Both the position numbers and the translations under genes were made by a program. The notes under the pieces are model-generated. The model was not told the origin of the DNA. It searched no databases and worked only from the letters and a program-made list of their open reading frames with translations. From IMG/VR virus record IMGVR_UViG_3300045988_132430, positions 1 to 63,469 of that record: a stretch of 63,469 nucleotides of DNA; one strand, 5' to 3'. This document shows positions 21,181-63,272 of this stretch, in pieces (position 1 is the stretch's first letter; each line of letters begins with the position of its first letter). The DNA comes from a virus.

Positions 21181-21486
21181 TCAAAGTGCGTTTTGTCTTT
21201 CGTTCAAAAGTGCATTTATATCGCTTTGTTTGTAGTAGTTCTTGTTACCTAATTTTATAGGCTTTAAGTACCCACGCTTAGCCCATACCCAAAGAGAAGA
21301 TTTTTGCACGTGAAAAATAGCCCTTACTTCCTCAGTTGATAGCAAATTTTCTTTTGTTGTACTCTTGTTTTCGTTCGCTTTAAGTTGTTCCATAAATTCA
21401 GCCATCATAGAACTAAACACACTTTGCAAATCTTCTTTTGTTATCATAAAGATTTGGCTTGCGTTTGTAATTGTTTTAGCATCCAT
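21181..21486 (-). CDS. Excisionase-like HTH (MerR/HTH_17-type) protein
   Basis: LSTEEVRAIFHVQKSSLWVWAKRGYLKPIKLGNKNYYKQSDINALL. It lies immediately downstream of the integrase. A -7 box TATATTTG sits at 21543-21550 on the minus strand. Confidence 0.6.
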   Translation of the reverse strand: MDAKTITNASQIFMITKEDLQSVFSSMMAEFMEQLKANENKSTTKENLLSTEEVRAIFHVQKSSLWVWAKRGYLKPIKLGNKNYYKQSDINALLNERQNAL

Positions 21487-21611: not shown

Positions 21612-22943
21612 TTATAATAGCCTTATAACTTCGCTTTTTATCTCATCGTCTATTGCCCTATATCGTGCAAAAGCGGTGCTATTTTGTGCGTGCCCACTCA
21701 TTGAGGCAATTAAATTTGGGTCTTTTACTTGTTTGTATAATAAGCCAATAAATGTGCGCCTTGCCATGTGTGTGCTAACTACTTCGCAAAGTTGCTTTTG
21801 TTCCTCCTTTCGTGTTATTGGGTTTAATACTTGTACTTGTCGCGTGAAGCCACAAAGGGCAAAAAGTTTCTTTAGCTTTCTGTTAATCCTTTCAGTGCTG
21901 CCACAATTCGGTAAAAGGTTTGCACCCTCTTTGTACTTCTCAATGATACGCAAAGCAACTGAATGTAACGGAATGCGTAAAACGCGCCCACGCTTTGAAA
22001 TGGTCTTTTGTGGTATGTATTCCAAATAGTTGCCTATTATGTTATGTTTGGTAAGCCTCAACAAATCACTAATACGGCAACCGCAAAAACACTGAAATAT
22101 AAATAAATCGCGTATCTTCGCAAGTTCGGGGAAATCTTGCAAATCGTATTCCGTTAGCGTGTCGCGTTCCTCCCTTGTAAGGTAGTAGGGAGTGCCGTAT
22201 ATCTCGGGACTTATCTTTATACTCGCCATAGGGTTTTTGTTTATTAGTCCTTTTCTTTCGGCAAAGTTTAAAACGGCTCTAAATTTTTTCATGTACCCTA
22301 TTATGGTGTTTATACTCCTTTGTTTTGGTGGTCTGCCTTTCCTTGTAAGGTCTTCAAATGGTTTGCTTTCGTATATTTCGTGGTGCTTTGCTACTTCTTC
22401 TTGTTCGTGCTTCAAAAAGTCTTCAAAGTTGGCAATATCATTTGCCGTAAGTGTGCGAATATCCGCAAAGTGTGTTGTTTTGCCTTGTGCTTGCTCGTTC
22501 ATTTTTAAGTGCTTAAAAATAGTTCTAAGTGCTTTGTAATACTCTTTGCTCCTTTTGCTCATTTCGTTTGCTTTTACGTATTGTTTTATAAGTTCGCAAA
22601 TGTCGTATATATTACCGCCATCCGTGCAAAGTTCACAAAATACTTCACCATTCATTGCCCTTGTAAGGTCGTGCGAGTTTTTTATAAAATCTTTGTTTTG
22701 TTCGTACACCTCCAAAAGTCGGTCTTTTGTATTTTGTATTTCGTTGTTTGTCGTTCGTCTGTATGTGTTATTGCAAATCTTTCTTGTACTTATTTCTCCC
22801 TTTTTAGAGTCCCAAAGAATAACATTTACAGAAATAGTACTTTTATAAAATAGTTGTACGTTTCGCCCATCAGACAAACGGAAACGAACAAAAGCGGTAT
22901 CTTTGCCCTTGGTCGCTCTTATTAGTGCTTTAATTGTTGCCAT
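21612..22943 (-). CDS. int: Tyrosine recombinase/integrase of the nested element
   Basis: 443 aa. The N-terminal arm-binding-like domain reads MATIKALIRATKGKDTAFVRFRL. The C-terminus carries ARRTF...GHAQNSTAFARY (R, HxxR and Y catalytic pattern). Confidence 0.85.
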   Translation of the reverse strand: MATIKALIRATKGKDTAFVRFRLSDGRNVQLFYKSTISVNVILWDSKKGEISTRKICNNTYRRTTNNEIQNTKDRLLEVYEQNKDFIKNSHDLTRAMNGEVFCELCTDGGNIYDICELIKQYVKANEMSKRSKEYYKALRTIFKHLKMNEQAQGKTTHFADIRTLTANDIANFEDFLKHEQEEVAKHHEIYESKPFEDLTRKGRPPKQRSINTIIGYMKKFRAVLNFAERKGLINKNPMASIKISPEIYGTPYYLTREERDTLTEYDLQDFPELAKIRDLFIFQCFCGCRISDLLRLTKHNIIGNYLEYIPQKTISKRGRVLRIPLHSVALRIIEKYKEGANLLPNCGSTERINRKLKKLFALCGFTRQVQVLNPITRKEEQKQLCEVVSTHMARRTFIGLLYKQVKDPNLIASMSGHAQNSTAFARYRAIDDEIKSEVIRLL

Positions 22944-28186: not shown

Positions 28187-28546
28187 TTAGAAATTCGCAT
28201 TTTTCTTAGCTTTTTCCTTGTTTTGATATCTTATTAGCAGTTTCTTGACCTTGTTTGCTGAATAGGCATTTGAATTGTTTATCCTATATATGTGCATTCC
28301 CAACCTACGCAAGCACGCACTTCTGTTGCTGTCAAGTCGCTTTTGGTTATCCGTAAAATGGTATTTCCCATCTACTTCAATAGCAAGTTTGAGCGTAGGT
28401 ATGTATATATCTATATAAAAGCACTTTCTTGCTGTTCTAACTGGGTACTGTCTTATAAATTGCACATTCAATGCGCTTAGTATTCTACACACAGACTTTT
28501 CAGCTGAGGTCGATTTGTTTAGTAGTTCATTTCTGTAGTTTGCCAT
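28187..28546 (-). CDS. DUF559 / Vsr-like endonuclease-fold protein
   Basis: SAEKSVCRILSALNVQFIRQYPV...YIDIYIPTLKLAIEVDGKYHF fits the DUF559 pattern. Confidence 0.55.
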   Translation of the reverse strand: MANYRNELLNKSTSAEKSVCRILSALNVQFIRQYPVRTARKCFYIDIYIPTLKLAIEVDGKYHFTDNQKRLDSNRSACLRRLGMHIYRINNSNAYSANKVKKLLIRYQNKEKAKKNANF

Positions 28547-31795: not shown

Positions 31796-31859
31796 AAGGT
31801 GATATGATTCCTAATGTCGATATATTGAGCGACGCTGGACATATCACCTTCATTTTTTT
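31796..31859. terminator. Bidirectional terminator between the plus-strand island and the convergent MuF gene
   Basis: 11-bp stem AAGGTGATATG/CATATCACCTT (31796-31806 and 31840-31850) with an inner GTCG/CGAC stem. It is followed by CATTTTTTT on the plus strand and TTTT on the minus strand. Confidence 0.6.
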
Positions 31860-34215
31860 ACTTTAACCGAATGTTATAAGGTATTTCGATTCCATTTTTG
31901 TAGACTTCTGTTTTAATCAACCATACCTCATCATTCTTTTGTAATTCATATTCGTTATAATGAGTTACACCACGTTTCCTTTTTCTTTCAAGGTTTCGTA
32001 AATCAATTTTATTGTTTACATCTTTTACTTCACCAAATATAGACCTTCTACAGAATAGCATTTCTTTCGGATGGGTTACTACATATTTAAACATATCCAC
32101 TTCTTCTTTATTTTTAGCATGAACAATACTTCTTTTCAGAGAACTCTTGCTGTATTTCAATTCACCATCATGTAACTTTTGAATTGTATTGATTTCCAGA
32201 ATTTCAGACATAGCCTTATTTCTGTATTCTATTATCTTCTTTGAAAGATTTACCCTCGTACCAATAATTGAACTTTTATCACGGCTCAAAACAGCCTCAG
32301 TACCTGCCGTTTGTTCTTTCGGAGGTTTTGTCATAAAACTCTTTTTGTCAATAGGTCTTACAACTTTCCAGTTTTTAATATCGAACACAAGATTGTCTAC
32401 ACGATACGCACGCACACCCTTGATTTTCTTTGCATATTCCTTGTCAAAGAAGTTGCGCTCCCCAGTTTGTGGGTCATACCAAAGTGCTGTACCATCTGCT
32501 TTACGCTCCATTGTTACGATGTGTCCATACTTCTCACCTTTCCAACCAAAGGATACATGATAACGACCAACTTCTTTTGTATGTTCGTTTATTTGTTGAA
32601 TGGTCTCTTTGTATGGTAAACCAATAATATTACCACTCTTAGAGATTTTATATGCAAATCTTTCGGGTGTAGCAATACGTTTGCCATCATCATTTCGCCA
32701 ACATAGCCATGTGCAGTGAGATAAAATTTCGGGGTCATCTCCCATTCTCCAGTTAGGTTGAGCAGTTACATCAAACCCACGCATTCTCAATTCATGAGCA
32801 ACAACAGAAGATTGGCAATTTACGCGAAACGCTGTAATACCGCTCTTGTAATCAATATTCCCTTTTCCTTGGTTAGCTTCTTCAAAGTCCATTGAAATAC
32901 CACGTTTGATTTCCATTTTGTTTTCAATATCCTTGAAATTTTGTTGCTGAGCAAGTGAATATTTTCTTTCGTCCCAACGTGTAAGTATGTTTTCTATTTG
33001 CTTATCAGTTCTTGCTTCGTGACGAGTCTTTGCTGCAGCAAGTATTTTCTCACGGCTTGACATTGGTTCAGTTGCTTGCTTCTCCTCCCATCCGAGCAAA
33101 TCACCAACGACACGTTCGTTATCCTTCACAAAGTAAGGCAGTTTCCCTTTTTCACGTGCCAGTGCTAATTTCTTAGCATTGCGCTCGCACCATTTTGAGA
33201 ACTTCTCAGGCACGTTTTGTACAAGGTTGGGGGATTTGTAAGCCTTGTATTCTTTTTCGGGCAGAGAGCGCAAGTATTTCCATTCTTCGCTATCTCTATC
33301 AATTAGAATTGACGAAGCAGAACACATGCAACGTGGATGCCATCCGCGCCACATAAAATCTTTTGGGTAGTCACCTGCAAGCTCGTCACATATATCCTCC
33401 TCTGGATGATTGCCCGATAAGCGAATACGTATACCAAGCACAAACGGCTCACTACTCCACCTTTCACAATTAGCGAAGTTGTACGCCATGTTTGTTTCGG
33501 TAATGGTCAGGCGCAAGGCATTTTGACGTGCTGAGCGATAAACTCCAGTACCAACCTTTGCCAAGTCTTCCTTCACGAAATGCACATTCCCATCTTCATC
33601 CACAACTCGCCTACGCCATTCTATTACATCTTTTTTCGTGCCATCTGACATGGTTTTCTTAACGTGATAGCGTCTGTACATCATATCGGGGTTATTCAAG
33701 TGCTGACGTATTTTGCGACCAAGGCTTTCTGCCGATTCTCCCTTCTTAATGCCTTTTTCTATAGCATTAGACATTGCAAGTTCAAACTCAGCTTTTGTCT
33801 GTTGTGTGTAATTCCAAACTCTATCAGACAAATTCAGTCCGTCTGTTCTATCCCTTCTGCTACGTATGAACGCATTAGCGGTCTTATCCCTCCATTCATC
33901 AACGGCTTCGCCCTGCATACGTGTATATGCTTCAAAAGCCTTTTGTTGGGTTGTTGTTGAAAGCATAACTGCACGCGTTATTCCTTGCTGAATAAGGGAT
34001 TGTAACGCTTGTTTATAAGAATCAAGTAGAGCTTGCACCCTTTCCTTTTCGGTGGGGGTGCAAGCATTTGAAATCTTATAAAATTCTTCTGGTGTAACTC
34101 GTTCCGTTGAAACGATAGTTGCCTTCGTTAACTCATCTATAATATGGTTGTATAACTTATTGAAATCGGACGAAGCTTGCAGAAGTAATTTGATGATATT
34201 CTTTTGAATTGACAT
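31858..34215 (-). CDS. MuF/SPP1 gp7-like head morphogenesis protein fused to a papain-like domain and a C-terminal extra domain (polyvalent protein)
   Basis: 785 aa. The MuF-type core includes GNHPEEDICDEL...WHPRCMCS. Residues 440-615 carry NC467QSSVVAHEL, GH565IV and WYD581P in Cys-His-Asp order. Residues 650-785 form a further basic domain. Confidence 0.7.
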   Translation of the reverse strand: MSIQKNIIKLLLQASSDFNKLYNHIIDELTKATIVSTERVTPEEFYKISNACTPTEKERVQALLDSYKQALQSLIQQGITRAVMLSTTTQQKAFEAYTRMQGEAVDEWRDKTANAFIRSRRDRTDGLNLSDRVWNYTQQTKAEFELAMSNAIEKGIKKGESAESLGRKIRQHLNNPDMMYRRYHVKKTMSDGTKKDVIEWRRRVVDEDGNVHFVKEDLAKVGTGVYRSARQNALRLTITETNMAYNFANCERWSSEPFVLGIRIRLSGNHPEEDICDELAGDYPKDFMWRGWHPRCMCSASSILIDRDSEEWKYLRSLPEKEYKAYKSPNLVQNVPEKFSKWCERNAKKLALAREKGKLPYFVKDNERVVGDLLGWEEKQATEPMSSREKILAAAKTRHEARTDKQIENILTRWDERKYSLAQQQNFKDIENKMEIKRGISMDFEEANQGKGNIDYKSGITAFRVNCQSSVVAHELRMRGFDVTAQPNWRMGDDPEILSHCTWLCWRNDDGKRIATPERFAYKISKSGNIIGLPYKETIQQINEHTKEVGRYHVSFGWKGEKYGHIVTMERKADGTALWYDPQTGERNFFDKEYAKKIKGVRAYRVDNLVFDIKNWKVVRPIDKKSFMTKPPKEQTAGTEAVLSRDKSSIIGTRVNLSKKIIEYRNKAMSEILEINTIQKLHDGELKYSKSSLKRSIVHAKNKEEVDMFKYVVTHPKEMLFCRRSIFGEVKDVNNKIDLRNLERKRKRGVTHYNEYELQKNDEVWLIKTEVYKNGIEIPYNIRLK

Positions 34216-35673: not shown

Positions 35674-36930
35674 TTACATTAAATCGATAAATTCGTCAGC
35701 GTCGAGTCCGTTGCTGTTTTGACCTAATAACTTGTCAAGAACAACATAGCGTATGCCGTCCAAGCAGTGATTATAGGCATCGATAGGCTCATTTAACCAC
35801 TTGCCTTCTTTGTTTTGTCTGTATGTGTAATTACGGAACTCTTTCAGCACGTTTGTACTTCTCCTCGTTACACACATCTTCATTTCCTGCATCTTCTGAA
35901 TACCTGCCATGATTGAACCTGAGAATTTCCGCACGGGGTGTATATCAAGTCCAGCGTTGGCTATTTCGTCAATTAGGCGAGGGTCTGCGCTCTCTGAGAT
36001 AATCTCTACGTTTTCACCGCATTCTTTATTTGCATCCTTCAGTACGCGTATTATGTCAGCAGCAAGCATGTGCGTTTGATAGCATACTTCGTCAATCCAC
36101 AGTGTACCATCATTGATGTACACATCCACGATAGCAGTTGGGTCGTTGGTGTAACCGAAGTCCATACCTCTGTAGTGGTGTTTCTTATGCCAACGTGGAA
36201 TCTCGTCTATTTCCTCGACATTCTCAAATATCAAGCCTTCTACCATTGCTTGCAGCCCAAGACCATAAATGCGCCACAGCGAAGGATTCTTGTGTTTAAG
36301 GCTTTCGATTTCATCAATAACCTTTTGCTCCAAGAATGGATTATCTTTGTAAGTAGTGATAAAATGATAAGTCTTAGGCTCTTTATTCAGTGTGCATAGC
36401 CAGTGGTCATCCGTAAAAGAGGGGTTGTAGTCAATAATAGAGAACTTAGTAGTACGCATTTGCAGCTGCTGCCATTCAATAAACTTTAGCTCGTTACCTT
36501 CATTAACGTACAAAATCTGACGCTTACGACCGCGCAACTTTTGCTCGTTATCGCATGAGAAAAACTCCACCCATGAACCATTTTGGAAGGTGCAAATCAA
36601 TTCTGATTTATTGAACTTGCATTCTCCCCAAATGTTCATATCTTGCATTACTTTTATAAAGTCACGGAGAACAGAACCTTTGAGCGAGGGTAGAGTAGCA
36701 CGAACAACTGACACTGTCGTATGTGGGTTATTCAAGCAATATGCACACAACCAAATAATGGTGTTGTATGTCTTTGATGAACGGCTACTTCCTTGTTCGC
36801 TAACTGTCGTATAACCGCGAATGTAGGCTTTGTTAATCTCTGAAAAGATTCTTGTTGTCTGTATTTTATTCTTCCTCTTCTTCGTCATTATCGTCCGTAT
36901 CAACTTGTTCTCTACTATCAATGATTTCAA
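35674..36930 (-). CDS. terL: Terminase large subunit
   Basis: 418 aa with a Walker-A-like GSSRSSKT. It is adjacent to the portal gene. The true start may be Met15 (36888). Confidence 0.8.
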   Translation of the reverse strand: MKSLIVENKLIRTIMTKKRKNKIQTTRIFSEINKAYIRGYTTVSEQGSSRSSKTYNTIIWLCAYCLNNPHTTVSVVRATLPSLKGSVLRDFIKVMQDMNIWGECKFNKSELICTFQNGSWVEFFSCDNEQKLRGRKRQILYVNEGNELKFIEWQQLQMRTTKFSIIDYNPSFTDDHWLCTLNKEPKTYHFITTYKDNPFLEQKVIDEIESLKHKNPSLWRIYGLGLQAMVEGLIFENVEEIDEIPRWHKKHHYRGMDFGYTNDPTAIVDVYINDGTLWIDEVCYQTHMLAADIIRVLKDANKECGENVEIISESADPRLIDEIANAGLDIHPVRKFSGSIMAGIQKMQEMKMCVTRRSTNVLKEFRNYTYRQNKEGKWLNEPIDAYNHCLDGIRYVVLDKLLGQNSNGLDADEFIDLM

Positions 36931-37477
36931 CCATTAAAGGCTCGCGAGCAATATCCTTTCCATTGGTAGTAACGTCAAGTTTCTTCGGAACATAAAGTCC
37001 TAACAACTTCCTACGCTCTATAAGCATCTTATTGATAAATTCAAGGTAGCGTATATCGCCATGACAATTCACATTCTCAGACATCTGTTCCATCTTTACG
37101 GTCACGACATTCTCACCGCCTGATTCCTCAGAAGGAACACCAACTTGCCTACTTTGCTTCTTGTCATAGTCAAGCTTCGATTTTTCCCACGCAGCCCACG
37201 CTTCCTTAATCAACTCGTCAATACGCTGCAATTCAAGTTGGATATTCGCGTCAATACTCTTTATCCTCGTTTCTTGCCATTCTGCTAATAGGCGATTAAC
37301 GTCTTTGTGTACAGTCTGTAAAGAGTACGTTGGTAAGTCAAGGCGAGCCATGACTTCCTCACGTATCTCACGGAACGTATACCCACGCTTGTACAACTTG
37401 CTTATAATATCCATTCGTACATATTGCGCGTGTCGGTAATCGCACATCTTCATCTTTTTTTTTATTAGGTTAGCCAT
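36866..37477 (-). CDS. Terminase small subunit (putative)
   Basis: 203 aa with an N-terminal HTH-like segment RGYTFREIREEV...SLQTVHKDVNRLL and an acidic tail. It is upstream of and overlaps TerL. Confidence 0.55.
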   Translation of the reverse strand: MANLIKKKMKMCDYRHAQYVRMDIISKLYKRGYTFREIREEVMARLDLPTYSLQTVHKDVNRLLAEWQETRIKSIDANIQLELQRIDELIKEAWAAWEKSKLDYDKKQSRQVGVPSEESGGENVVTVKMEQMSENVNCHGDIRYLEFINKMLIERRKLLGLYVPKKLDVTTNGKDIAREPLMVEIIDSREQVDTDDNDEEEEE

Positions 37478-38721
37478 TATTTTTCACCATTATATTTATA
37501 GATGAGATTTCCTTCTTCGTCTTTTCCAACTGGGATAATAACGCCTTCAAACATCTTGTAAGGATTCTGACCTGCTTGCGGATTATTCCAAAGCCAACGC
37601 ATATATGCAGCCATTGACATGCCTTCAAACTTTGCACGTCTTTCACAAGTGCACGTATTGAAACCTTCCGCTTTCTTCCACTCGTATTGATGTAGTTCTT
37701 CTATATCTTTCTTTATGTCTGAATACCTTACAAGCCCATCTTTTGCATGCTTGGCTATTTGCAAAGCTTCACAGAATTGCCCCTTTGAGTAATTCCATGT
37801 TGGCGGTAAGCCACAGCAAGAACCATTGTGGCAGAGTTCTTTGAAGTGTGCATCAGATACGTAAAAGCGCATTCCGAGTTCATCACAAAGATTCTTCATG
37901 TTCTTAAAGAACGGCTCTTTAATCTTTCTGTTAAGACGTAAATACCCAGTAGAAACGCTATATTTCTTGTAGAACTCCATCAGGTCGAAGCCTGCTAATT
38001 TATTCAACATTGGCATATAGTGTTTAAGCGTATTACTTCGTTGCTCAACGCAGAAGAACTCAGTACTGAGTGCAGTTGCACCTCTGTTGGCTGCTTCTCT
38101 GATAAGGTCAAGATACGTTTTTGAAGAAACACCAACAATGAATGGGCGAAGTCTTAAGGTTGCCCCACCTGCATCAGCTTCGGCAATTCTTCTGATAGCT
38201 TCAAGTCTTTGCAAGGGAGTTGGTACACCACGTTCTATGACGTGTGCATCGTGTTCATCAAGCGTAATAATGCTAAACTTGAAGTTCCAATTCTTCTGTC
38301 CGCGAATTAGCTCCATGTAGCGTTCATCTTCTGTAAACCATGCAGCTTTCGTTGAGAAACATAGCGGATAATCTATCTCTTTGAAAAAACGCAACAATTC
38401 AAGCGTTTTTCCATACTTACGCTCATAACCATCAAATTGGTCTGACATTCCACCCCACTGCATCACTCTTCGCTGTTTGATGTAGGTTGCGAATTGTCCT
38501 GCATACTTATCAGGGTCTGTGAACATTTTCTTTATCTTCTCAATATTCACATATTTCACATCCTTATTCAAATAATGCTCTTTACAAGAGCCTAATGCTC
38601 GCTGAAATTGAGCAAAACAATACATACAGCCGAAAGCGCAATTACTATACGTGTCGAACGTCATAGGCATTGAGCAATCGGCAATTTCTGCTGTCCATCT
38701 TGGAGAACTATAATATTGCAT
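37477..38721 (-). CDS. Radical SAM enzyme (SplB/COG1533-like)
   Basis: The CxxxCxxC motif occurs in YSNCAFGCMYCFAQ near the N-terminus. 414 aa. Confidence 0.75.
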   Translation of the reverse strand: MQYYSSPRWTAEIADCSMPMTFDTYSNCAFGCMYCFAQFQRALGSCKEHYLNKDVKYVNIEKIKKMFTDPDKYAGQFATYIKQRRVMQWGGMSDQFDGYERKYGKTLELLRFFKEIDYPLCFSTKAAWFTEDERYMELIRGQKNWNFKFSIITLDEHDAHVIERGVPTPLQRLEAIRRIAEADAGGATLRLRPFIVGVSSKTYLDLIREAANRGATALSTEFFCVEQRSNTLKHYMPMLNKLAGFDLMEFYKKYSVSTGYLRLNRKIKEPFFKNMKNLCDELGMRFYVSDAHFKELCHNGSCCGLPPTWNYSKGQFCEALQIAKHAKDGLVRYSDIKKDIEELHQYEWKKAEGFNTCTCERRAKFEGMSMAAYMRWLWNNPQAGQNPYKMFEGVIIPVGKDEEGNLIYKYNGEK

Positions 38722-38726
38722 CGATT

Positions 38727-39158
38727 TTAAATTTTGATTTTTAGTTCCATTTCGTAATCATTTCCTTTTACGTCTATGATATTTGCACCCATTTTGAGCC
38801 AAAAATGTTGTGCGCTCTCGTTAATAGGGGTTCTGAATGTTAAGGTGTCAAATCCGCTTTCTTTCATTTGTAGAAGTAAGCGAGAGAGAATTTTACGTCC
38901 AATACCATTTCTTTGATATTCGCTAATGACGGCAATTTCTATAAGTCGAATGTGGTTTTTACAGCGGTTTGCGTAGTAGAATGCTATTGGCAAACCATCC
39001 TTGCTCCAGACCTTGCTCCAGACCTTGCTCCAGACCTTGCCTTTTGTAACGTAATTTATTCTTCTAAAATAGTTATAAGACTGCTTAGCTGTCTTTGAAC
39101 CACAATTATAGCAAATATCCTTTACGAGTTCATCGTTGTAATTTTGCTCACTCCACAT
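38727..39158 (-). CDS. GNAT-family N-acetyltransferase
   Basis: IAVISEYQRNGIGRKILSRL (Q/RxxGxG motif). 143 aa. Contains a 12-bp x 3 repeat (KVWS x 3) at 39001-39036. Confidence 0.7.
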   Translation of the reverse strand: MWSEQNYNDELVKDICYNCGSKTAKQSYNYFRRINYVTKGKVWSKVWSKVWSKDGLPIAFYYANRCKNHIRLIEIAVISEYQRNGIGRKILSRLLLQMKESGFDTLTFRTPINESAQHFWLKMGANIIDVKGNDYEMELKIKI

Positions 39159-39681
39159 ATTTTTTTGCCGTTTTTAGAATGAATGACAATATGCGTTCAT
39201 GCTCTTCTTTGGTATTGTTCCAAACACGCTGCACATTGTATTTTTTTACAAAATTCTCTACCTTGCTTCTTCTGCTTTTTAAGAATGTTTCAGTCTGGTT
39301 ATCTCCTCGCTTTGCATGTCTTTTTTTAAGGACGCGCTCATCAGCGTCAATCAGCAATAACAGAGCCTTTGTTTCCCTTAAAAAGCGGATATTGAAAAGT
39401 CTGTCACCCTCAACGAATATCACATTTTTTTGTTTGCTTTTATCGAGTTGTTTTACATAAGCAATAGCATCGTCAATAACAGTCATACTTAGCCTATCTG
39501 TACCCTCAAATGTAGAGCCATCAAACACTCCAAGCATTTTGAATGCGCCATTCTCAACACCCTTACATTTGCCAAACTTAAACTCGGTTGCTTCATTAAA
39601 AAGATGTTCTCTAATCCTTTTAAATAAGGTAGTTTTACCGCTTGCAGGTACACCTGCTATGTATATAACATTTACACTCAT
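39148..39681 (-). CDS. P-loop kinase-like protein
   Basis: Walker A GVPASGKTT at residues 10-18. 177 aa. Start and stop codons overlap both neighbours. Confidence 0.65.
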   Translation of the reverse strand: MSVNVIYIAGVPASGKTTLFKRIREHLFNEATEFKFGKCKGVENGAFKMLGVFDGSTFEGTDRLSMTVIDDAIAYVKQLDKSKQKNVIFVEGDRLFNIRFLRETKALLLLIDADERVLKKRHAKRGDNQTETFLKSRRSKVENFVKKYNVQRVWNNTKEEHERILSFILKTAKKYVE

Positions 39682-40355
39682 AACAAACTGATTATAATGT
39701 TTTTATACTCAGAATCAACGATATTATCCAACAGCCTTTCAGTATAATAACCATCCCAACGAGTACCCTTGATAAACTTTGCAACTGCACATATGGAAGT
39801 TTCTATAGCAAAGCAATTGTCTGCTGTGTCCTTTTTAGCACGTTCTAAGAATGCATTGAGAGCGTTGAGGTCATTTGTTCCGATGATATGCACTGCACCT
39901 TTTGTGTAGTTTTCGTTGGTTTCCCACTTAAAACGCAGATTGTCATACCATTTAGGACGGAAGCAGTTATAATATACTTCGAGGAACAGAAATGCAGTGT
40001 AGCGACCAAAGAAAAACCACTTACGAACTGTGTTGTACGCTTCCTCGGTCGTTTTACAAGATTGTAGAGAATGAAGCATACTGACATTTAGCTCTTTAAG
40101 CAATCTATCGTATGCTCCATTGCAGCGCACAAAACGTCTGTCTGTACGGAACACGAGATCTTTCTTTTGAGTGTTTGTAGGCTTAAATAGCAGAAGCAGC
40201 GCACTCGGGATATGGTAAGTCATTGAGTAGAAATAAATCAACTTGAACGTGTCCCATTGTGACAAGTTAAAATATTTGGCAAGTGAAGCAATCATACGTT
40301 CCTCCACGGCTGCATCTCCTCTTCTATGGTACGCTATATATTCGTTGTAATTCAT
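39678..40355 (-). CDS. All-helical protein, candidate aGPT-pyrophosphorylase/HhH-glycosylase-like DNA base-modifying enzyme
   Basis: 225 aa. FRTDRRFVRCNGAY, FFFGRYTAFLFLEVY and TKGAVHIIG segments, with a translationally coupled P-loop kinase downstream. The assignment is tentative. Confidence 0.3.
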   Translation of the reverse strand: MNYNEYIAYHRRGDAAVEERMIASLAKYFNLSQWDTFKLIYFYSMTYHIPSALLLLFKPTNTQKKDLVFRTDRRFVRCNGAYDRLLKELNVSMLHSLQSCKTTEEAYNTVRKWFFFGRYTAFLFLEVYYNCFRPKWYDNLRFKWETNENYTKGAVHIIGTNDLNALNAFLERAKKDTADNCFAIETSICAVAKFIKGTRWDGYYTERLLDNIVDSEYKNIIISLL

Positions 40356-40360
40356 TGCAT

Positions 40361-41221
40361 CTACTTTTCGTTAGCATTGTCAGCAGCAATGTCTTCTCCA
40401 GTTATTTCGTGAATATTATAAACCACCTTATCAATCTTCGCAAGCCCGAGCAACATTGCAACATCTTGTTCTCTTTCGCTTGGGTAGACGATAATAACTC
40501 GCTTCATAGCAGTTTCATCAGAACCATGCAATTTAGGCAACTCATTCGGCTGCAAGTCAAGACCTTGCAATTCTGGTGGAAGATTGTCTAAGGAGTTTTC
40601 CCCTAACGATTCTTCAACATTCAAGTTTTCGCTTTGGGCATCTCCCCCTGCTTCAAAATCTACAGAAGGTTTATTCTCCGATGTGTTCGTGTTGCTTTCA
40701 CTACTACCGAAGTCGTTACCGAAGCTCATACTATCAGTATTCCACACTGGCACGCCCCAATCGTTAAGGCTTTCTGTATTCCATTTGTTGGCAAGGGCTT
40801 CGAAGTCCCATTGTCCTGAACTTACATTATCCTTGATGACAAACTGCTTGCGCTCGTTCTCTGTCAGTTCACTTGCGTTGATTACGAACGCATAAGGAGA
40901 GCAAATCCATTCGTTCCACCATTTAACGACTGCTTCTTTTTCTCCTTGTGCTTTTTCCTTGAAGTCGTTGACTTTTGATAGAGTTGACTTAATATCATCA
41001 ATCGACATTGTTGATATTTTTTTCAGCGCACGCAAACGCATGTTACCACCGATAACTTCATTCTTGCCATCAATTACGATAGGTCGAATAATTTGCATCT
41101 TAGGGAACACGAGGATTGAGCGTACAAGTTGCATGAACTTCTCGCTTGTAATCTCTCGAGGGTTGTTAACACTCTCTTTGATTTGACTGATTTTCAGTTT
41201 TTCTGTCTTTTCTAATTTCAT
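40361..41221 (-). CDS. ParB N-terminal (ParB/Srx nuclease-like) domain protein
   Basis: SVNNPREITSEKF...IIRPIVIDGKNEVIGGNMRLRALKK, with an acidic C-terminal half. Confidence 0.65.
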   Translation of the reverse strand: MKLEKTEKLKISQIKESVNNPREITSEKFMQLVRSILVFPKMQIIRPIVIDGKNEVIGGNMRLRALKKISTMSIDDIKSTLSKVNDFKEKAQGEKEAVVKWWNEWICSPYAFVINASELTENERKQFVIKDNVSSGQWDFEALANKWNTESLNDWGVPVWNTDSMSFGNDFGSSESNTNTSENKPSVDFEAGGDAQSENLNVEESLGENSLDNLPPELQGLDLQPNELPKLHGSDETAMKRVIIVYPSEREQDVAMLLGLAKIDKVVYNIHEITGEDIAADNANEK

Positions 41222-41309
41222 TGCTTTGTTTGTATTATAATTGTTTGTAATTTTCTACTTCCATTTACCCTTCTTAATCAAGACTTCATTCAACTTTTGT
41301 AGGTTGTCG

Positions 41310-41765
41310 CTATTTGTTGTTTTTTTTACCTACATTGTCAATGTTCCTTTTTAAAGAGTAAAGCTCGCTAACAACTTGTTCTGCTCGCGTTTTGTTGGAA
41401 TATCCTCTGTCTGCATTATATCTAAGAGCTTCGATTTTATCGCTAATCTTTGAGTTTAAAGAGCTTAATCGTTCTCTGTAATATGTTTCGATATTGTATA
41501 GTCCTTCAACACTTTCGAGATTGAGGTTGTTTACAGTATCTTTTACAGCGTCAACTGCTTCTTTGTACAGACCTTTTAGCTCTTTTGCAAGAGCGGTTCT
41601 TGAACCTTTATAGTAATCAGCATTTCGCTCTATCTCTGAAAATTCTTCGCTGTTCAGGATGTCTTTGCGCAACTCAGTCTTTAGGTTGCTTTCTGTCGAA
41701 GCGTTATTTGCCCTATTCCTTGTTCCTCCACTATACTTCATATTCAATTTGTTTTCTGTTATCAA
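41310..41765 (-). CDS. Hypothetical helical protein
   Basis: 151-aa ORF that overlaps the upstream gene by 35 nt. Confidence 0.5.
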   Translation of the reverse strand: MITENKLNMKYSGGTRNRANNASTESNLKTELRKDILNSEEFSEIERNADYYKGSRTALAKELKGLYKEAVDAVKDTVNNLNLESVEGLYNIETYYRERLSSLNSKISDKIEALRYNADRGYSNKTRAEQVVSELYSLKRNIDNVGKKNNK

Positions 41766-42483
41766 TAACTTGCTTGTCGAGCAAATCCTGCAGCGTTGGA
41801 ATAGCTTTGCCCATGTCCCATTCTTTCTTGAACAAGGCAGTATTCTGTGCCATTCTCTGAATAGACTTGTATTTGTTCTTTATGATGATGACAGGTGTAA
41901 CGTATACCGCGCCATGCTCTTTGCACCATTGTTTGATAACTTCACCACCGCCATACACAACGAATGTAAGGTTATTGCCATCTGCAATGCGCTTAGCAAT
42001 TTCGTATTCAAAGTTTAGCCCATTCACTCTATCCTCATAACCACGTGTACAGAATGCGCTCCAACCTTTCGGAACTCCAAGCAGATTGAATGCGTAGAAC
42101 TTGTTAGCGACATTCAGGTCAACGAATACGCGGATGCCTTTCTCCTGCATCTGCCTTGCAATTATTCGTTTTTTGTATACTGCTTGCAGACCGAACGCAA
42201 TAGGCGTTTCGTTGAATAGCGAGAAGTTAGGTTCTACAATCTGTGCTGGATTGTGTTGCAATATCTTTTCGGGGTGCTCAAAAATGCTGTTGAATCGATA
42301 ATCATCCGTGTAGAAATGTAGAGTACCACCTCCGTTCATTTTGAATGTTCGCTTTTGTTCTCCGAAGCAGACAAAGGGTATTTCGCAGCACGTTGCTTGC
42401 ATGTCAAGTCTTAGGCTTGGCACTTCGAAGTCGTTATCAGTCGGAAATAACGCGTCTGGTATGTACGATAATTCATTTTTCAT
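41731..42483 (-). CDS. DUF4417-like protein
   Basis: 250 aa. GTLHFYTDDYRFNSIFEHPEKIL is typical of DUF4417, which is often paired with ParB-like genes in phages. Confidence 0.5.
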   Translation of the reverse strand: MKNELSYIPDALFPTDNDFEVPSLRLDMQATCCEIPFVCFGEQKRTFKMNGGGTLHFYTDDYRFNSIFEHPEKILQHNPAQIVEPNFSLFNETPIAFGLQAVYKKRIIARQMQEKGIRVFVDLNVANKFYAFNLLGVPKGWSAFCTRGYEDRVNGLNFEYEIAKRIADGNNLTFVVYGGGEVIKQWCKEHGAVYVTPVIIIKNKYKSIQRMAQNTALFKKEWDMGKAIPTLQDLLDKQVIDNRKQIEYEV

Positions 42484-42542
42484 ATTGCGATATTACGCAA
42501 AAGAGCTAAGTACTTTAGTGTACTCAGCTCTAATTTCCCGAT

Positions 42543-42890
42543 TTATACCTCTTTTATTGCAATTCCATGCACATAACGCAATAATTTGCGTTTAATGATA
42601 TAAGTAGCATTTGAAAGTGTTATCGCAGATTTCACATCCTCAACAACTTGCTTTCCATCTTGAATATAGGTAAAATCAGCGACATAATTGCAAGCCCGTT
42701 CTACGACCTTCCCTTTTTCGTTTCGTTGTGATGGGATAAGTTCAAAGCTAACTTGTCGCTTTAAATCCTTTATTCTACCGCGTTTTTGTAGGTCAAGTAA
42801 GTAAATGTACCGCTTCCACTCTTTAATGCTGTCAAATCGCCCGAATTTGTTTTTAATCGTGGTGTTTTTGTATTTGTTCTCTCGCTTCAT
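42543..42890 (-). CDS. DUF1064 (resolvase/nuclease-fold) protein
   Basis: FGRFDSIKEWKRYIYL...YVADFTY...VVEDVKS...YIIKRKLL pattern. 115 aa. Confidence 0.6.
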   Translation of the reverse strand: MKRENKYKNTTIKNKFGRFDSIKEWKRYIYLLDLQKRGRIKDLKRQVSFELIPSQRNEKGKVVERACNYVADFTYIQDGKQVVEDVKSAITLSNATYIIKRKLLRYVHGIAIKEV

Positions 42891-42912
42891 TCTTGCTATC
42901 TTTATATTAAAA

Positions 42913-42920
42913 CAAAATTA
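42913..42920 (-). promoter_or_regulatory. -7 box TAATTTTG at the start of the late operon
   Basis: The minus strand reads GGGTAATTTTGTTTT about 25 nt upstream of the ATG at 42890. Confidence 0.35.
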
Positions 42921-42933
42921 CCCAATAATAAGC

Positions 42934-42970
42934 AAAAAACCGACAGACTTAATAGTCTATCGGTCTTTTT
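42934..42970. terminator. Bidirectional terminator separating the early and late transcription units
   Basis: A6 run, then stem ACCGA-c-AGACT / AGTCT-a-TCGGT, then CTTTTT. Confidence 0.6.
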
Positions 42971-42992
42971 CTAACTTATACCATTTAAATGT

Positions 42993-43229
42993 TCACTGTA
43001 TCTTGTTCTCTGCCTTAAGCTTACACAACTTTTTAGAGCGACGCAACCATGCTGAAAATCTTTGGCAATATCGATTTGCTTCCCTACCAGAAGGAGAATA
43101 ATGACTTACAACTATTGTTGCTCTATCATATTTATGTTTCAAAGTACAAAATTCTTTAATATTTTGTTCGTCTTTATGTAAAAATTCATAGAAACGTTTG
43201 ATATGTTTCCGTGCTTGCCTTAACTTCAT
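42993..43229 (-). CDS. Hypothetical basic protein
   Basis: 78-aa ORF, last gene of the early operon. Confidence 0.5.
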   Translation of the reverse strand: MKLRQARKHIKRFYEFLHKDEQNIKEFCTLKHKYDRATIVVSHYSPSGREANRYCQRFSAWLRRSKKLCKLKAENKIQ

Positions 43230-52960: not shown

Positions 52961-53649
52961 TTTATTTTGCCCGTTACTGAATCTCGTTCATACCCCATGT
53001 TGAATAACCATTTCAGTTCTTTCCATTCTTCATAGGTTATGCAATCTGGATTACACGAAGGTTTTTCTTTGCTATCCTTAATCAATACTTCTGCTTGTTC
53101 AATCTGCTTTAGCATACCGCAACGCCAATTATTGAACTTCTGTAATGCTCCAGTAATAACAAGAGGGTCTATAGCTCCGTAAAAGCTTCCGTACATTCCG
53201 ACTTTGAACTTAAAGAAGAAAAGCATTAACTCAGATAGTTTCAGGAAATGGAATTCTGATGTTATCAGCCTTGCAATTTCCTCTTTCTGATAATCGTTAA
53301 GTTTCTTGTTAACGCCAGTATATTCAGAAAGGTCGTGTATTTGATTTGCGAGCCATATCGCGACATTGGTTTCGCCCCAGATGTCTTTTACATCTTTGAG
53401 AGAGGGACAATCACCAACAAGACTTTTTATTGGCTGTTCTGCAAACAATATTTGATACTGAGGTAAGAACTTAATTGCTAATCCTTCAAAGGTCTTGTAA
53501 CGGGTCAGGTATCTTTTCTGATTCTGAGTTAGCTGCTTCAAGTCTTTGCGTTGCGTAAGCTCTCCATGCTGCGTCGCGTTGTGCTCGCCCGTTGTCAGCT
53601 GCACTTGTGCTTCGTTGTATGCTTGTTCTATTGTCATAATTTCCTTCAT
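52957..53649 (-). CDS. Hypothetical replication-module protein
   Basis: 230-aa ORF. Its first 164 nt overlap the 3' end of the upstream gene, so the true start is uncertain. Confidence 0.5.
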   Translation of the reverse strand: MKEIMTIEQAYNEAQVQLTTGEHNATQHGELTQRKDLKQLTQNQKRYLTRYKTFEGLAIKFLPQYQILFAEQPIKSLVGDCPSLKDVKDIWGETNVAIWLANQIHDLSEYTGVNKKLNDYQKEEIARLITSEFHFLKLSELMLFFFKFKVGMYGSFYGAIDPLVITGALQKFNNWRCGMLKQIEQAEVLIKDSKEKPSCNPDCITYEEWKELKWLFNMGYERDSVTGKIK

Positions 53650-54421
53650 ATATCTTTGGAAAATTTGTTGGTCTGAAAATCCAGTCGAAAGTAGCTAAGA
53701 AACCTCTGTTGTTATCGCCATTCAAGAAATTGCTGTTTGCTGTCTTAACGATGACTTGCGCAACTGCTTCCTTTCCGTACTCCTTTGTTCGAGCTAAGAT
53801 TTGCGACATTCTACTTTGATTTAGCCTTACAATCTTCCTAACTTGCTTTCCTTGCATCTGCTCATTGAAGTATTTCGCTACATTGTTGCAGTATTCTCTA
53901 TTCTCTTTTTCTTCATCAGACTTTACGATTGTAATTTTTCCGTCAGATTCAGTTTCAGAGTCAACGGAAGCCGTTGACGTAGATTCTGAGTGTAATGAAG
54001 AATCTATATTATCTTTTTTATTTTTATTTTCTTTTTTATTTTTATTATTGGTTTCGTTGGGTTTTTCTGGGTTTTCCAAATAACCCATGGGTTTTGTTGG
54101 GTTTTGTTCGGTTTCTACACTTTTTCGCGGTCTTCCACCCTTACTGCCATTATCTTTTTGTTTATCAATAAACGCTTGTTGTTTTGCGCGATTCTCGTTA
54201 ATAGTCAAGCGAATATTGTCAAGAATGCTTTCAAGATAGTATGCAAGATTGGATTCTTTATTTTCAAAGGCATAGTCACAAATAGCATCGTATATCAGTA
54301 ACCGCTCATTGTCTGGCAAACGCTTCATTTGTTCGCGCCACCTCTGATAAAATAGAAACGCTTGCTCTTTCATTCTTAATAGTTTTAAGTTGTAAAACCG
54401 CTGGGTTAATTTAAAAACCAC
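53486..54421 (-). CDS. Replication organizer (DnaD-like conserved phage C-terminus)
   Basis: AKYFNEQMQGKQVR...SRMSQILARTKEYGKEAVAQVI...FLATFDWIFRPTNFPKIYEGNYDN. The N-terminus resembles nested-element ORF 20122-20679. Confidence 0.6.
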   Translation of the reverse strand: MVFKLTQRFYNLKLLRMKEQAFLFYQRWREQMKRLPDNERLLIYDAICDYAFENKESNLAYYLESILDNIRLTINENRAKQQAFIDKQKDNGSKGGRPRKSVETEQNPTKPMGYLENPEKPNETNNKNKKENKNKKDNIDSSLHSESTSTASVDSETESDGKITIVKSDEEKENREYCNNVAKYFNEQMQGKQVRKIVRLNQSRMSQILARTKEYGKEAVAQVIVKTANSNFLNGDNNRGFLATFDWIFRPTNFPKIYEGNYDNRTSIQRSTSAADNGRAQRDAAWRAYATQRLEAANSESEKIPDPLQDL

Positions 54422-61992: not shown

Positions 61993-62036
61993 AAGGGATT
62001 ATGGGAAAATCAAAAGTCCCATAATCCCTTTTCTTA
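61993..62036. terminator. Bidirectional terminator between the moron block and the integrase
   Basis: 13-bp stem AAGGGATTATGGG/CCCATAATCCCTT followed by TTTCTT. Confidence 0.65.
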
Positions 62037-63272
62037 CTTATCCGAATTTACATAGTCAATCACAGCCCTCACAGCTTCATCAACCTTCTTTTGGTTTCGC
62101 CTTACATATATATCCGTCATAGGGTAAGGCGATTTATGCCCTAATGCCATATCTATAACTGCATCGGGAATGTCTATATCCGCTGCAATAGTTGCCCATG
62201 TATGACGTGCCCAATAGCTCGTTATTTCTGGAAAGTCAGCAATGTAATGCTTTGACTTATGTATTGCCCCGTTCTTCGCTTGCTTGTATTCGTAGAACAT
62301 TGTGCCAACCTTCTGTAAGTTTTCATTCATGCGATGCAAGAAGTCTTTATGATTTTTGTATTCTTCGCCAAAACGCAACATACGTTCTTTGCCTTCGTAT
62401 TTCTTTATTAACTGCAATGCTTCTTGTGGCACATTTAGCTGACATAGTATGCCCGTTTTGCTGCGTCTATATTCTATGCGCCCACCTTCAAGTTTGGGTA
62501 ACTGCAAAAGGTCTATCATGTTAATACCAGCAAGGTAGAACGATATGAAGAACACGTCTATATATTTACGTATGTGCGCCTCGCCTGAATAATCCCGAAG
62601 CCTACGCAACTCGTCAACATTCAAAGAACGTTTTGCTGTTTGCTCTGTCTTTATACGAAACTGACGAAATGGGTAGTTTTCTTGACTAATTAAACCTTCT
62701 CGAATAGCTTCATTGTAGACTGCTCTTAGGTTGCGCAAGTGTATGGAACGTGTATTAACTGCATTACCACGCTGCTCCATCCACGCTTCCAAATCTCGTA
62801 GCCATGTGTAGGTAATATCAGCGAAGCGTAGATTGTCCACATCGCAATATTTTCCGAGCATGGATAACGTAGTTTTATAAACCTCGGCTGTTTTAGGCTT
62901 ATCTTTTCTATCTATAAATTTAGACCAATATTCAGCTACAAGTGTTTTGTCTTTAACCTCCTTCTTCCTTTCTAAAGAATCTGGAGCGATTAAGGCGACA
63001 AGTTCCTTGCCCGTCATCATTCTAACGTTATGCGTTGCACAGATTGAAGCTAACTTTAGTTTGAGCGATGAAAGTGTAAGGTCAAGCAACTTGTTTAACT
63101 GCTTGTCTTGTGTTGTTCCAACGATTTTTCCATCATGCCAATTTTCCTTTTTGATGATGATGTCAGTTGGGATGTAAGCTACGGTATTTTTTGAACGAAC
63201 ACAAATTCGGATTCTATATGTTTCCGTCTTTGTTTTCTTTCTACTATCTAAATATGCTGTTATTGTTGCCAT
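62034..63272 (-). CDS. int: Tyrosine recombinase/integrase of the prophage
   Basis: 412 aa. The N-terminus reads MATITAYLDSRKKTKTETYRIRI (arm-binding-like). The C-terminus carries ARHTW...LGHKS...MTDIY. It is adjacent to attR. Confidence 0.9.
   Translation of the reverse strand: MATITAYLDSRKKTKTETYRIRICVRSKNTVAYIPTDIIIKKENWHDGKIVGTTQDKQLNKLLDLTLSSLKLKLASICATHNVRMMTGKELVALIAPDSLERKKEVKDKTLVAEYWSKFIDRKDKPKTAEVYKTTLSMLGKYCDVDNLRFADITYTWLRDLEAWMEQRGNAVNTRSIHLRNLRAVYNEAIREGLISQENYPFRQFRIKTEQTAKRSLNVDELRRLRDYSGEAHIRKYIDVFFISFYLAGINMIDLLQLPKLEGGRIEYRRSKTGILCQLNVPQEALQLIKKYEGKERMLRFGEEYKNHKDFLHRMNENLQKVGTMFYEYKQAKNGAIHKSKHYIADFPEITSYWARHTWATIAADIDIPDAVIDMALGHKSPYPMTDIYVRRNQKKVDEAVRAVIDYVNSDK

Follow-up and report, generated by a model that had tools for sequence, protein, structure and literature searches.

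A ParB-linked radical SAM enzyme as a candidate oxygen-independent initiator of thymine hypermodification in prophages of gut and rumen anaerobes

The gut prophage recorded as IMGVR_UViG_3300045988_132430 raises a question of supply. In the stretch analyzed here (positions 1 to 63,469 of the record, called the window, to the whole of which all coordinates refer), a P-loop kinase and a predicted amino-acid:DNA transferase (AADT) are encoded just upstream of the terminase genes, and the logic of post-replicative thymidine hypermodification is thus present, as the initial annotation of the sequence had supposed. This pair needs 5-hydroxymethyl-deoxyuridine (5-hmdU) in DNA, so that some source of this base is required. 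Known sources are ThyA-like dUMP hydroxymethylases, as in phages M6 and PaMx11, or TET/JBP dioxygenases, some of them ParB-dependent (PMC13229309). Neither was found in the window. We propose that a radical S-adenosylmethionine (SAM) enzyme resembling spore photoproduct lyase (SPL) acts with a dedicated ParB-like protein as an O2-independent hydroxylase of thymine (5-methylpyrimidine) on DNA, an anaerobic counterpart of TET/JBP that would feed interchangeable cassettes; we hold this about as probable as its negation. Kinase/AADT hypermodification of thymidine is known, and the module of the window would differ from it in the initiating enzyme.

The seven open reading frames (ORFs) originally described between 37477 and 42483 are all present at the coordinates given for them, on the minus strand. 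Five of them form the conserved unit (41221..37477): a ParB-like protein of 286 amino acids (aa; 41221..40361), the 225-aa predicted AADT (40355..39678), the 177-aa kinase (39681..39148), a 143-aa GNAT acetyltransferase (39158..38727) and the 414-aa radical SAM enzyme (38721..37477), called rSAM below. In 60 IMG/VR loci with relatives of the AADT, the gene order is ParB, AADT, a P-loop protein of ~190 aa, an optional GNAT, the rSAM and a gene at the small-terminase position (TerS). In the window, the ParB and AADT genes as well as the GNAT and rSAM genes are separated by 5 nt, and overlaps of 4, 11 and 1 nt are found at the AADT/kinase, kinase/GNAT and rSAM/TerS junctions, respectively. From ParB to the rSAM, the junctions fit the translational coupling proposed for the cluster. 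The placement upstream of the terminase genes also holds: the 203-aa TerS-position gene (37477..36866, minus strand; phrog_645 match and position) and the large terminase (36930..35674, minus strand; Terminase_3/3C) come straight after the rSAM, and the TerS position is kept in most related loci.

That the 225-aa protein would be the transferase is borne out by its fold, its active-site motif and its family profile. Its AlphaFold2 model is all-helical (pLDDT 94.9), and the top three PDB matches found by Foldseek are structures of PaMx11 gp46 (PUGT; 8Z2M/8Z2N; probability 1.00, TM 0.68-0.70), the next-best fold being that of the AGOG glycosylases (TM ~0.4). PaMx11 gp46 is a 5-phosphomethyl-dU glycinyltransferase in which Glu243 and Thr244 are metal ligands and Cys247 clamps the base (PMC11472151). 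In M6 gp51 and ViI gp247, mutation of the active-site Cys or of the adjacent Glu kills activity (PMC8989533). The invariant residues D176, N180, E185, T186 and C189 of the window protein, which is ~65 residues shorter than gp46 and ~10% identical to it, align with gp46 D234, N238, E243, T244 and C247. The stretch E185-T186-S187-x-C189, aligned with gp46 E243-T244-x-x-C247, is invariant across 52 AADT sequences.

The family has 493 protein clusters, and its profile can be aligned from one end to the other with gp6 of Rhodococcus phage Tonitrus, an annotated aGPT-Pplase2; the motifs YHIxSAL, T(D/E)RR, GR(Y/W)A, ETSLC and KG are common to both. Nearly all aligned members (51/52) match PF18724 (ADDT) at E≤0.1, with a best value of 7.3e-7 and no other consistent match, and one homologue has a precomputed match to this family. 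The window protein itself, found identically on six public contigs, scores 15.2 bits (E 0.018; cutoff 26.2), which suggests a divergent subfamily at the edge of the PF18724 model. Nothing was found by tblastn of the AADT against 50,697 phage records, and sequence and profile searches of PDB chains were useless for this family; fold searches alone worked. Homology and structure together support a genuine AADT of the clade-2 aGPT-Pplase type in the module, and the 225-aa protein is predicted to displace phosphate from 5-phosphomethyl-dU in DNA by an amino acid.

The kinase is of the DNA-base type, in agreement with its first description as a DNA-acting enzyme. It matches PF18751 (Ploopntkinase3) with 38.2 bits against a cutoff of 27, carries the Walker A motif GVPASGKTT and shares 32% identity (E 1e-19) with Tonitrus gp7; 397 phage records contain homologues. 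The Tonitrus cluster (PMC11955845) is ordered as ParB, a hypothetical gene, Tet/JBP, two small hypothetical genes, AADT and kinase, with the terminase a few genes on. Mycobacterium phage Donny has the order ParB, TET/JBP-like (a weak match), TET-associated glycosyltransferase (TAGT), PIG-L, kinase and terminase. No match of the window kinase was found to PF18748, the family of the characterized M6 gp54 5-hmdU DNA kinase, and direct BLASTP against PaMx11 gp49 and M6 gp54, members of a different kinase family, matched the P-loop alone. One of three unrelated kinase types was detected in the P-loop slot of all 60 AADT loci: Ploopntkinase3 in 13, a “VFITGTNxxGKS” type in 45 and PF18748 in the two most divergent ones (34.2 bits in L066). 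This non-orthologous replacement in the same slot indicates that the function of the slot is fixed. Judged from its sequence, the window kinase is a predicted 5-hmdU DNA kinase. The presence of a DNA-base-type kinase is supported by homology, and the place of the module in the world of thymidine hypermodification by homology and structure.

A source of 5-hmdU was looked for at several levels. From ~21 kb to the end of the window, no ThyA-like or TET/JBP (PF12851) protein is matched by Pfam, the hypothetical early genes having been followed to E 0.1. Window-wide tblastn with three phage TETs and two hydroxymethylases (E≤1) gave none, the structural region from 1 to 21 kb being covered by tblastn only. 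No credible TET or hydroxymethylase was found by tblastn or phmmer in ~200 related loci (60 + 143), where the sole hit (E 0.007 over 52 residues) looks spurious. The PLP decarboxylase and the FAD lyase of the Pseudomonas phage pathways were likewise not found in the window or in the related loci. The absence of a ThyA-like hydroxymethylase, noticed at the outset, is thus supported by Pfam from ~21 kb onward and by tblastn for the whole window. Of the two explanations then offered for it, a different substrate or new chemistry, the evidence favors the second.

The distribution of the rSAM indicates where such chemistry might come from. Relatives were collected from 291 IMG/VR loci, of which the best 80 were examined, and from 45 loci in GTDB species genomes. 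In nearly all of them, a variable cassette is framed by a ParB-like gene on its upstream side and by the rSAM on its downstream side. This cassette consists of an AADT and a kinase, with or without a GNAT; of a 355-aa protein (no significant Pfam match, HAD- plus APH-kinase-like by eye) with a cytidylyltransferase (PF01467) and a TAGT (PF20691); of a TAGT alone; of AADT, kinase and TAGT; of a GNAT alone; or, in Firmicutes, only of a second ParB. The closest relatives of the window (95% identity for the rSAM, 97% for TerS, 85-88% for ParB and 90% for the DUF4417 protein encoded upstream) carry the sugar/TAGT cassette exactly in place of its AADT, kinase and GNAT. Among the 60 AADT loci, the rSAM is missing from one, a truncated contig, and it is the most conserved gene of the module, with 72-82% identity compared to 53-73% for the AADT and 27-51% for ParB. 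ParB adjoins the module in 54 of these 60 loci and in most rSAM loci, distant ones included. The linkage is kept despite changes in order, such as rSAM-AADT-kinase in L062.

The rSAM is also repeatedly fused to decorating enzymes. A TAGT domain precedes it in L138, P0242 and P0243 and follows it in P0244, P0248, P0258 and P0259, the last also with an intein. In P0252, a kinase-like domain (22.7 bits, under the cutoff of 27), the rSAM and a TAGT are joined in this order. The rSAM of P0247 continues into an FkbM methyltransferase, and a GNAT is fused in front of it in L108 (by Pfam) and L109 (by homology). In total, the TAGT domain exceeds the Pfam threshold in 7 of the 20 long rSAM representatives scanned and stays just below it in P0266. 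The flanking of mutually exclusive cassettes by ParB and the rSAM, together with the recurrent fusions, supports the rSAM as the initiator. Because related phages keep ParB and the rSAM but exchange AADT and kinase for glycosyltransferase or GNAT-only cassettes, the swaps suggest an arms race that diversifies what follows a single initiating step common to all. Between near-identical phages, they constitute ready-made natural comparisons.

The fold of the rSAM is consistent with this role. The protein has the motif C28-x3-C32-x2-C35, and its best NCBIfam match is the PA0069-family rSAM (56 bits, cutoff 360). By sequence it stands near the PA0069/Rv2578c “DNA repair photolyase” group, far under the family cutoffs, and public sources annotate it under that name. 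No SPL was found in a profile search of PDB sequences, and searches of PDB chains with the rSAM or its family profile gave nothing useful; a Foldseek search of BFVD gave mainly rSAM entries without a name or with a generic one, and was uninformative. The top five PDB matches of the AlphaFold2 model (pLDDT 72.9) are nevertheless all SPL structures (E 5e-6), with SplB (4FHC and related entries) as the best. The mechanism of SPL, a DNA-acting radical SAM enzyme that flips thymines out of DNA, involves a thymine C5-methyl (allylic) radical. A fold closest to an enzyme that handles this radical in DNA supports the rSAM as the initiator, and we infer that it would start the pathway by an O2-independent functionalization of the thymine C5-methyl group.

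The window rSAM differs from SplB in several respects: the identity is 17-20%, models of the SPL family give no match, the gene context is one of phage DNA modification and not of spore repair, and the protein has a C-terminal region of ~120 aa and the extra conserved cysteines C16, C224 and C302/C303. Among 37 rSAM representatives (29-63% identity), Cys16 is conserved in 95%, Cys302-Cys303 in 89% and Cys224 in 84%; it is speculation that they ligate an auxiliary cluster or act in catalysis. Several family members are interrupted by inteins (P0249, P0259, P0338, P0326) with LAGLIDADG or DUF559 homing-endonuclease domains. In a divergent subgroup, a second, small rSAM of 278-285 aa (PF04055, 54 bits) is encoded just upstream of ParB (L138 5586-6422; L131 4903-5760; L140 341-1189) and is closer to M6 gp53 (E 5e-7) than the main rSAM.

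The second constant component is the ParB-like protein. It has no Pfam match at E≤0.1 in a direct scan, and its N-terminal domain is recognized by phrog_498 (1.3e-21), phrog_620 (1.3e-17), NCBIfam noc (4.4e-5) and a weak precomputed PF02195 match. This nucleotide-binding domain, with a GxxRxRA box (GGNMRLRA), is followed by an acidic linker and a small C-terminal domain with KRVIIVY...LLGL; no helix-turn-helix (HTH) is apparent, judged from the lack of matches, and searches of PDB chains gave nothing useful. The domain layout aligns with that of the ParBs in the TET/JBP clusters of Tonitrus and Donny, and the GxxRxRA box is retained, at a marginal similarity (21% identity, BLASTP E 0.02). Tandem ParB-like pairs stand upstream of the rSAM in many loci (genome loci L164, L171, L174, L176, L179 and L184-L186), and in prophages of Selenomonas, Lachnospiraceae and Oscillospiraceae, two ParBs and the rSAM are essentially the whole module. 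In the cultured strains Segatella copri HDE04 (NZ_CP152346, 1,932,309-1,949,538) and Selenomonas ruminantium S137 (NZ_FNJQ01000002, 101,504-118,772), the gene order appears to be ParB-ParB-kinase-rSAM and ParB-ParB-unknown-rSAM, respectively.

The closest known systems are the ParB-dependent phage thymine dioxygenases (5mYOX clade C1 + ParB), which have the same accessory repertoire (PNAS 2026, PMC13229309; e.g., Tonitrus gp1-gp8 and Donny gp1-gp5). The likeness includes the position of a post-replicative module just before the terminase and, probably, the layout of ParB, in which a nucleotide-binding domain is combined with a small C-terminal one and an HTH is not recognized; it further includes the set of Ploopntkinase3, AADT, TAGT, APH/HAD, O-methyltransferase and GNAT. 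Unlike in those systems, no Fe(II)/2-oxoglutarate-dependent TET/JBP was detected here; an SPL-like rSAM, itself a fusion partner of TAGT, occupies a constant position, and the hosts of the window's family are almost all anaerobes. Nearly all of the 45 genome loci are assigned to gut or rumen anaerobes, with Bacteroidales (including Segatella copri), Victivallales, Selenomonas, Lachnospiraceae and Oscillospiraceae as named hosts, and an O2-dependent dioxygenase could not work in such organisms. Context, fusions and exclusion point to ParB and the rSAM as the replacement of ParB and TET/JBP, making a hydroxymethyl (or equivalent) handle without O2, a substitution that we place at even or barely better than even. 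It would account for the missing hydroxymethylase, for TAGT and 5-hmdU-kinase families in the absence of TET, for the constant ParB, for the host range and for the neighboring SAM synthetase (MetK) genes. The latter lie beside the ParB-rSAM module in many relatives; none is present in the window. MetK occurs in three lengths of ~265, 342 and 409 aa (L007 6090-7118; L017 4223-5452; L138 9317-10120; others).

In the pathway proposed here, which as a whole we consider somewhat more probable than not, five co-transcribed late genes (41221..37477) would be expressed just before packaging and would modify thymine in replicated phage DNA. The SPL-like rSAM, aided by its cognate ParB, would functionalize the thymine C5-methyl group in DNA without O2. 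The simplest route would be H-abstraction to a thymine allylic radical, followed by one-electron oxidation and water capture to 5-hmdU. ParB would have the same helper role as in the ParB-dependent phage thymine dioxygenases. The P-loop kinase would then convert 5-hmdU to 5-phosphomethyl-dU, as its homology suggests. Fold, motif and homology point to a third step in which Cys189 and Glu185 of the AADT would eliminate the phosphate via an exocyclic methylene intermediate and add a free amino acid. In the last and least certain step, the GNAT might acetylate the adduct at its free amine, or else the hydroxymethyl group. Modified in this way, the packaged DNA would be shielded from host nucleases. 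The module most likely decorates thymines of the phage DNA with an amino acid, on whose identity the final structure would depend.

The GNAT (PF00583, 38.1 bits, cutoff 20.7) was detected in 40 of the 60 AADT loci. Homology along the entire protein links it to the GNATs of AADT-less ParB-GNAT-GNAT::rSAM clusters (E 6e-15 and 3e-8); its similarity to PaMx11 gp48 is weak (E 0.002). An acetyltransferase is thus present, as proposed for the tailoring of the modified base, but since AADT-less ParB-GNAT-rSAM clusters have members of this subfamily too, it may have a substrate other than an amino-acid adduct. The enzyme may act on the product of the rSAM, for example by O-acetylating 5-hmdU, instead of or besides the adduct. 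Within the gene, at 38999-39040, a perfect in-frame 12-nt tandem repeat of 3.5 copies encodes KVWSKVWSKVWS in the N-terminal part, a repeat absent from the homologous GNATs compared.

The alternative that survives best, although we regard it as unlikely, gives the rSAM the tailoring role assigned to it in the initial annotation. It would be a gp53-type isomerase, or another tailoring enzyme, on the amino-acid adduct (N-alpha-aminoacyl-T to C-alpha-aminoacyl-T), with the GNAT acetylating the exposed primary amine and 5-hmdU supplied by an unrecognized phage or host activity. M6 gp53 is indeed an SPL-like rSAM that acts after the AADT, the order AADT-kinase-GNAT-rSAM fits tailoring, and a precedent for acetylating an amine once it is unmasked exists in PaMx11 gp48. 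The weak similarity of the window rSAM to gp53 lies around the cluster motif and the barrel (BLASTP E 0.005, 19% identity over 178 aa; hhalign E 5e-4 with a marginal probability of 32%). In the PaMx11 and M6 clusters, 5-HMUDK and aGPT-Pplase2/AADT are followed by an FAD lyase and an acetyltransferase, or by an rSAM isomerase and a PLP decarboxylase (PMC8989533, PMC11472151). The window shares with them the logic of kinase plus AADT, the fold of the AADT and its Glu/Cys active site, and it also encodes an acetyltransferase and an SPL-like rSAM. PaMx11 and M6 are, however, lytic, possess their own polymerase and make 5-hmdU before replication by the ThyA-like dUMP hydroxymethylase; neither this enzyme nor the PLP decarboxylase or FAD lyase was found in the window, and its kinase belongs to PF18751 as opposed to PF18748. 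A gp53-type enzyme would depend on an AADT and a PLP decarboxylase, but the rSAM occurs without AADT in many loci (ParB-GNAT-rSAM, ParB-TAGT-rSAM, ParB-ParB-rSAM) and in fusions with TAGT, GNAT or methyltransferase. With 2447 protein clusters versus 493, its spread is about fivefold that of the AADT, and the searches detected neither a PLP decarboxylase homologue nor a 5-hmdU source. As a near-constant core with ParB, which occurs without AADT and is fused to decorating enzymes, the rSAM is probably not just a tailoring enzyme.

A different radical chemistry on the pyrimidine is slightly less probable again. The rSAM and GNAT could together add an acetyl-CoA-derived carboxymethyl group as in Elp3, or the rSAM could attach a SAM-derived methylene or aminocarboxypropyl group, and the other enzymes would act on that product. 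Elp3, the tRNA cm5U34 synthase, combines radical SAM and GNAT domains to modify the pyrimidine C5 in a nucleic acid. By analogy only, this recalls the GNAT::rSAM fusions and minimal ParB-GNAT-rSAM clusters of the window's family, to whose GNAT subfamily the window GNAT belongs, and the MetK adjacency suggests a heavy use of SAM. The rSAM subfamily and the domain order differ from Elp3, though, and the GNAT is dispensable in many members: none was detected in about a third of the AADT loci or in the TAGT cassettes. An obligate Elp3-like rSAM-GNAT mechanism was rejected as a general explanation on this ground. Moreover, TET/JBP, whose product is a hydroxymethyl group, is accompanied by the same accessory families (PF18748/PF18751 kinases, AADT, TAGT, FkbM-type methyltransferase).

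Lowest of the three specific alternatives, and improbable to us, is an artefact of synteny, in which ParB and the rSAM would belong to the conserved genes of the lineage, serve some other purpose (thymine damage repair, packaging or partition, for example) and just happen to flank a cargo hotspot. The public annotation of the rSAM as a repair photolyase and its SPL-like fold would agree with this, as would the frequency of ParB-like genes beside phage terminase genes and the minimal ParB-ParB-rSAM loci, which lack a recognizable decorating enzyme. Synteny leaves unexplained, however, the fusions of the rSAM with TAGT in both orientations, kinase, GNAT and methyltransferase, and the linkage survives the changed gene order in L062 and spans hosts of several phyla. 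All cargo enzymes depend on a hydroxymethyl-pyrimidine, for which no other encoded source was detected. The remaining probability falls to the absence of any DNA modification.

Several points weigh against the proposed pathway, in particular against its first step. To our knowledge, no radical SAM enzyme hydroxylates thymine in DNA, and the only characterized DNA-modifying rSAM, the SPL-like M6 gp53, is an isomerase acting after the AADT. The role suggested for the rSAM is drawn from gene context and fusions, and ParB and the rSAM could be mere syntenic anchors. The model of the rSAM has a moderate quality, and its residues 1-56, where the cluster loop lies, are unreliable or unmodeled; the window AADT is below the Pfam gathering threshold, and its Foldseek E-value is 0.06. 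A very divergent oxygenase could escape precomputed Pfam matches and tblastn. A few loci lie in bins named Staphylococcus, Bifidobacteriaceae and Methanomethylophilaceae, presumably mis-binned contigs, and the bias toward anaerobes may be due in part to what the databases contain and to the sensitivity of any rSAM to O2.

Every route to 5-hydroxymethyl-pyrimidine in DNA that we know of uses either a folate-dependent ThyA homologue on nucleotides before replication or an O2-dependent TET/JBP enzyme on DNA. Temperate phages of strict anaerobes that replicate on the host replisome can use neither, yet they encode the downstream enzymes. If ParB and the rSAM act as proposed, they would constitute a third, oxygen-free entry to DNA hypermodification; the rSAM activity itself would be a new kind of enzyme and the second DNA-modifying radical SAM activity known, and the newly described activator role of ParB would extend to a second enzyme superfamily. 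The cassettes would add amino-acid, glycosyl, acetyl and methyl groups in prophages whose anaerobic hosts, members of several phyla, live in the gut and the rumen. Non-canonical DNA would then be packaged by many phages that abound in the human gut and the rumen, those of Segatella, Prevotella and Phocaeicola among them, with consequences for virome sequencing bias, for restriction and CRISPR evasion and for O2-free enzyme tools to map or write 5hmU. No description of an rSAM/ParB/TAGT or rSAM/AADT system was found in the literature, within an incomplete coverage, and radical SAM is not mentioned in the 2026 ParB/5mYOX paper (PMC13229309) or in a 2023 glycosyltransferase preprint.

The two upstream genes that had been counted in the cluster, encoding the 250-aa DUF4417 protein (42483..41731, minus strand; PF14386, 115.8 bits) and a 151-aa protein (41765..41310, minus strand), are not co-conserved with it and do not belong to the module. 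DUF4417 was not found in any of the 60 AADT loci, and copies with 89-97% identity occur in sister phages (TerL 97%, portal 99%) without rSAM, AADT, kinase or GNAT; it is therefore not part of the module. IMGVR_UViG_3300045988_077230 is one sister phage in which the module is lacking. Searches of PDB chains by sequence or profile returned nothing useful for it. The 151-aa ORF, which public gene calls begin at Met9 (143 aa), has no family match in Pfam, PHROGs or NCBIfam and merely sporadic weak matches in related loci. Either protein as a hidden oxygenase was rejected on conservation grounds. At its N-terminus, the 151-aa protein has MKYSGGTRN, a sequence similar to the leaders of variable proteins that sister phages encode at this place: proteins of the DUF4417-ParB interval have different bodies behind a common leader (MKYSGGTRN, MAKGSGGTRG, MAKGSGSTRN; 41310-41765; L071 3593-4222 and 4258-4866). 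One of these is ADP-ribosyltransferase-like by eye, with an R-S-E pattern. Cargo proteins could be targeted or processed by means of this leader.

As to the rest of the window, it is a prophage: an integrase gene is present (63272..62034), past which a longer contig of 96.7 kb continues into host genes. The window encodes YqaJ/RecT-type recombination functions, SSB, MazG and dUTPase, and no DNA polymerase. MazG and the dUTPase had been suggested to adjust nucleotide pools; both genes are confirmed, but they are ordinary in temperate phages and no evidence links them to the module, of which they were rejected as parts. A terminator-like hairpin (42969..42934, minus strand), with a 16-bp stem and a following T run, lies upstream of the run into the terminase genes. 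The region 36000-43000 had no match in a DNA similarity search of 50,697 phage records.

A second tyrosine integrase of 443 aa (21612-22943, minus strand) is encoded between the head-completion and tail genes of the late operon. Beside it are an HTH_17 excisionase-like gene (21181-21486) and a DUF6291/DUF7833-like gene (20122-20679), the latter resembling an early-region gene at 53486-54421, and this region may be a nested mobile element or a satellite within the prophage. Among the head genes, a 119-aa protein with a Vsr-type endonuclease fold is encoded at 28187-28546 on the minus strand (DUF559, 35 bits; PvuRts1I-like_N, 33.9 bits; MTES_1575). PvuRts1I-type enzymes recognize hydroxymethylated DNA. 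Related phages have a 141-aa protein adjoining MetK, upstream of ParB, for which the label Vsr-like comes from its sequence alone. Directly after the portal gene, on the minus strand (31858-34215), a 785-aa protein carries a papain-fold glutamine deamidase toxin domain (PF15644, 53.8 bits).

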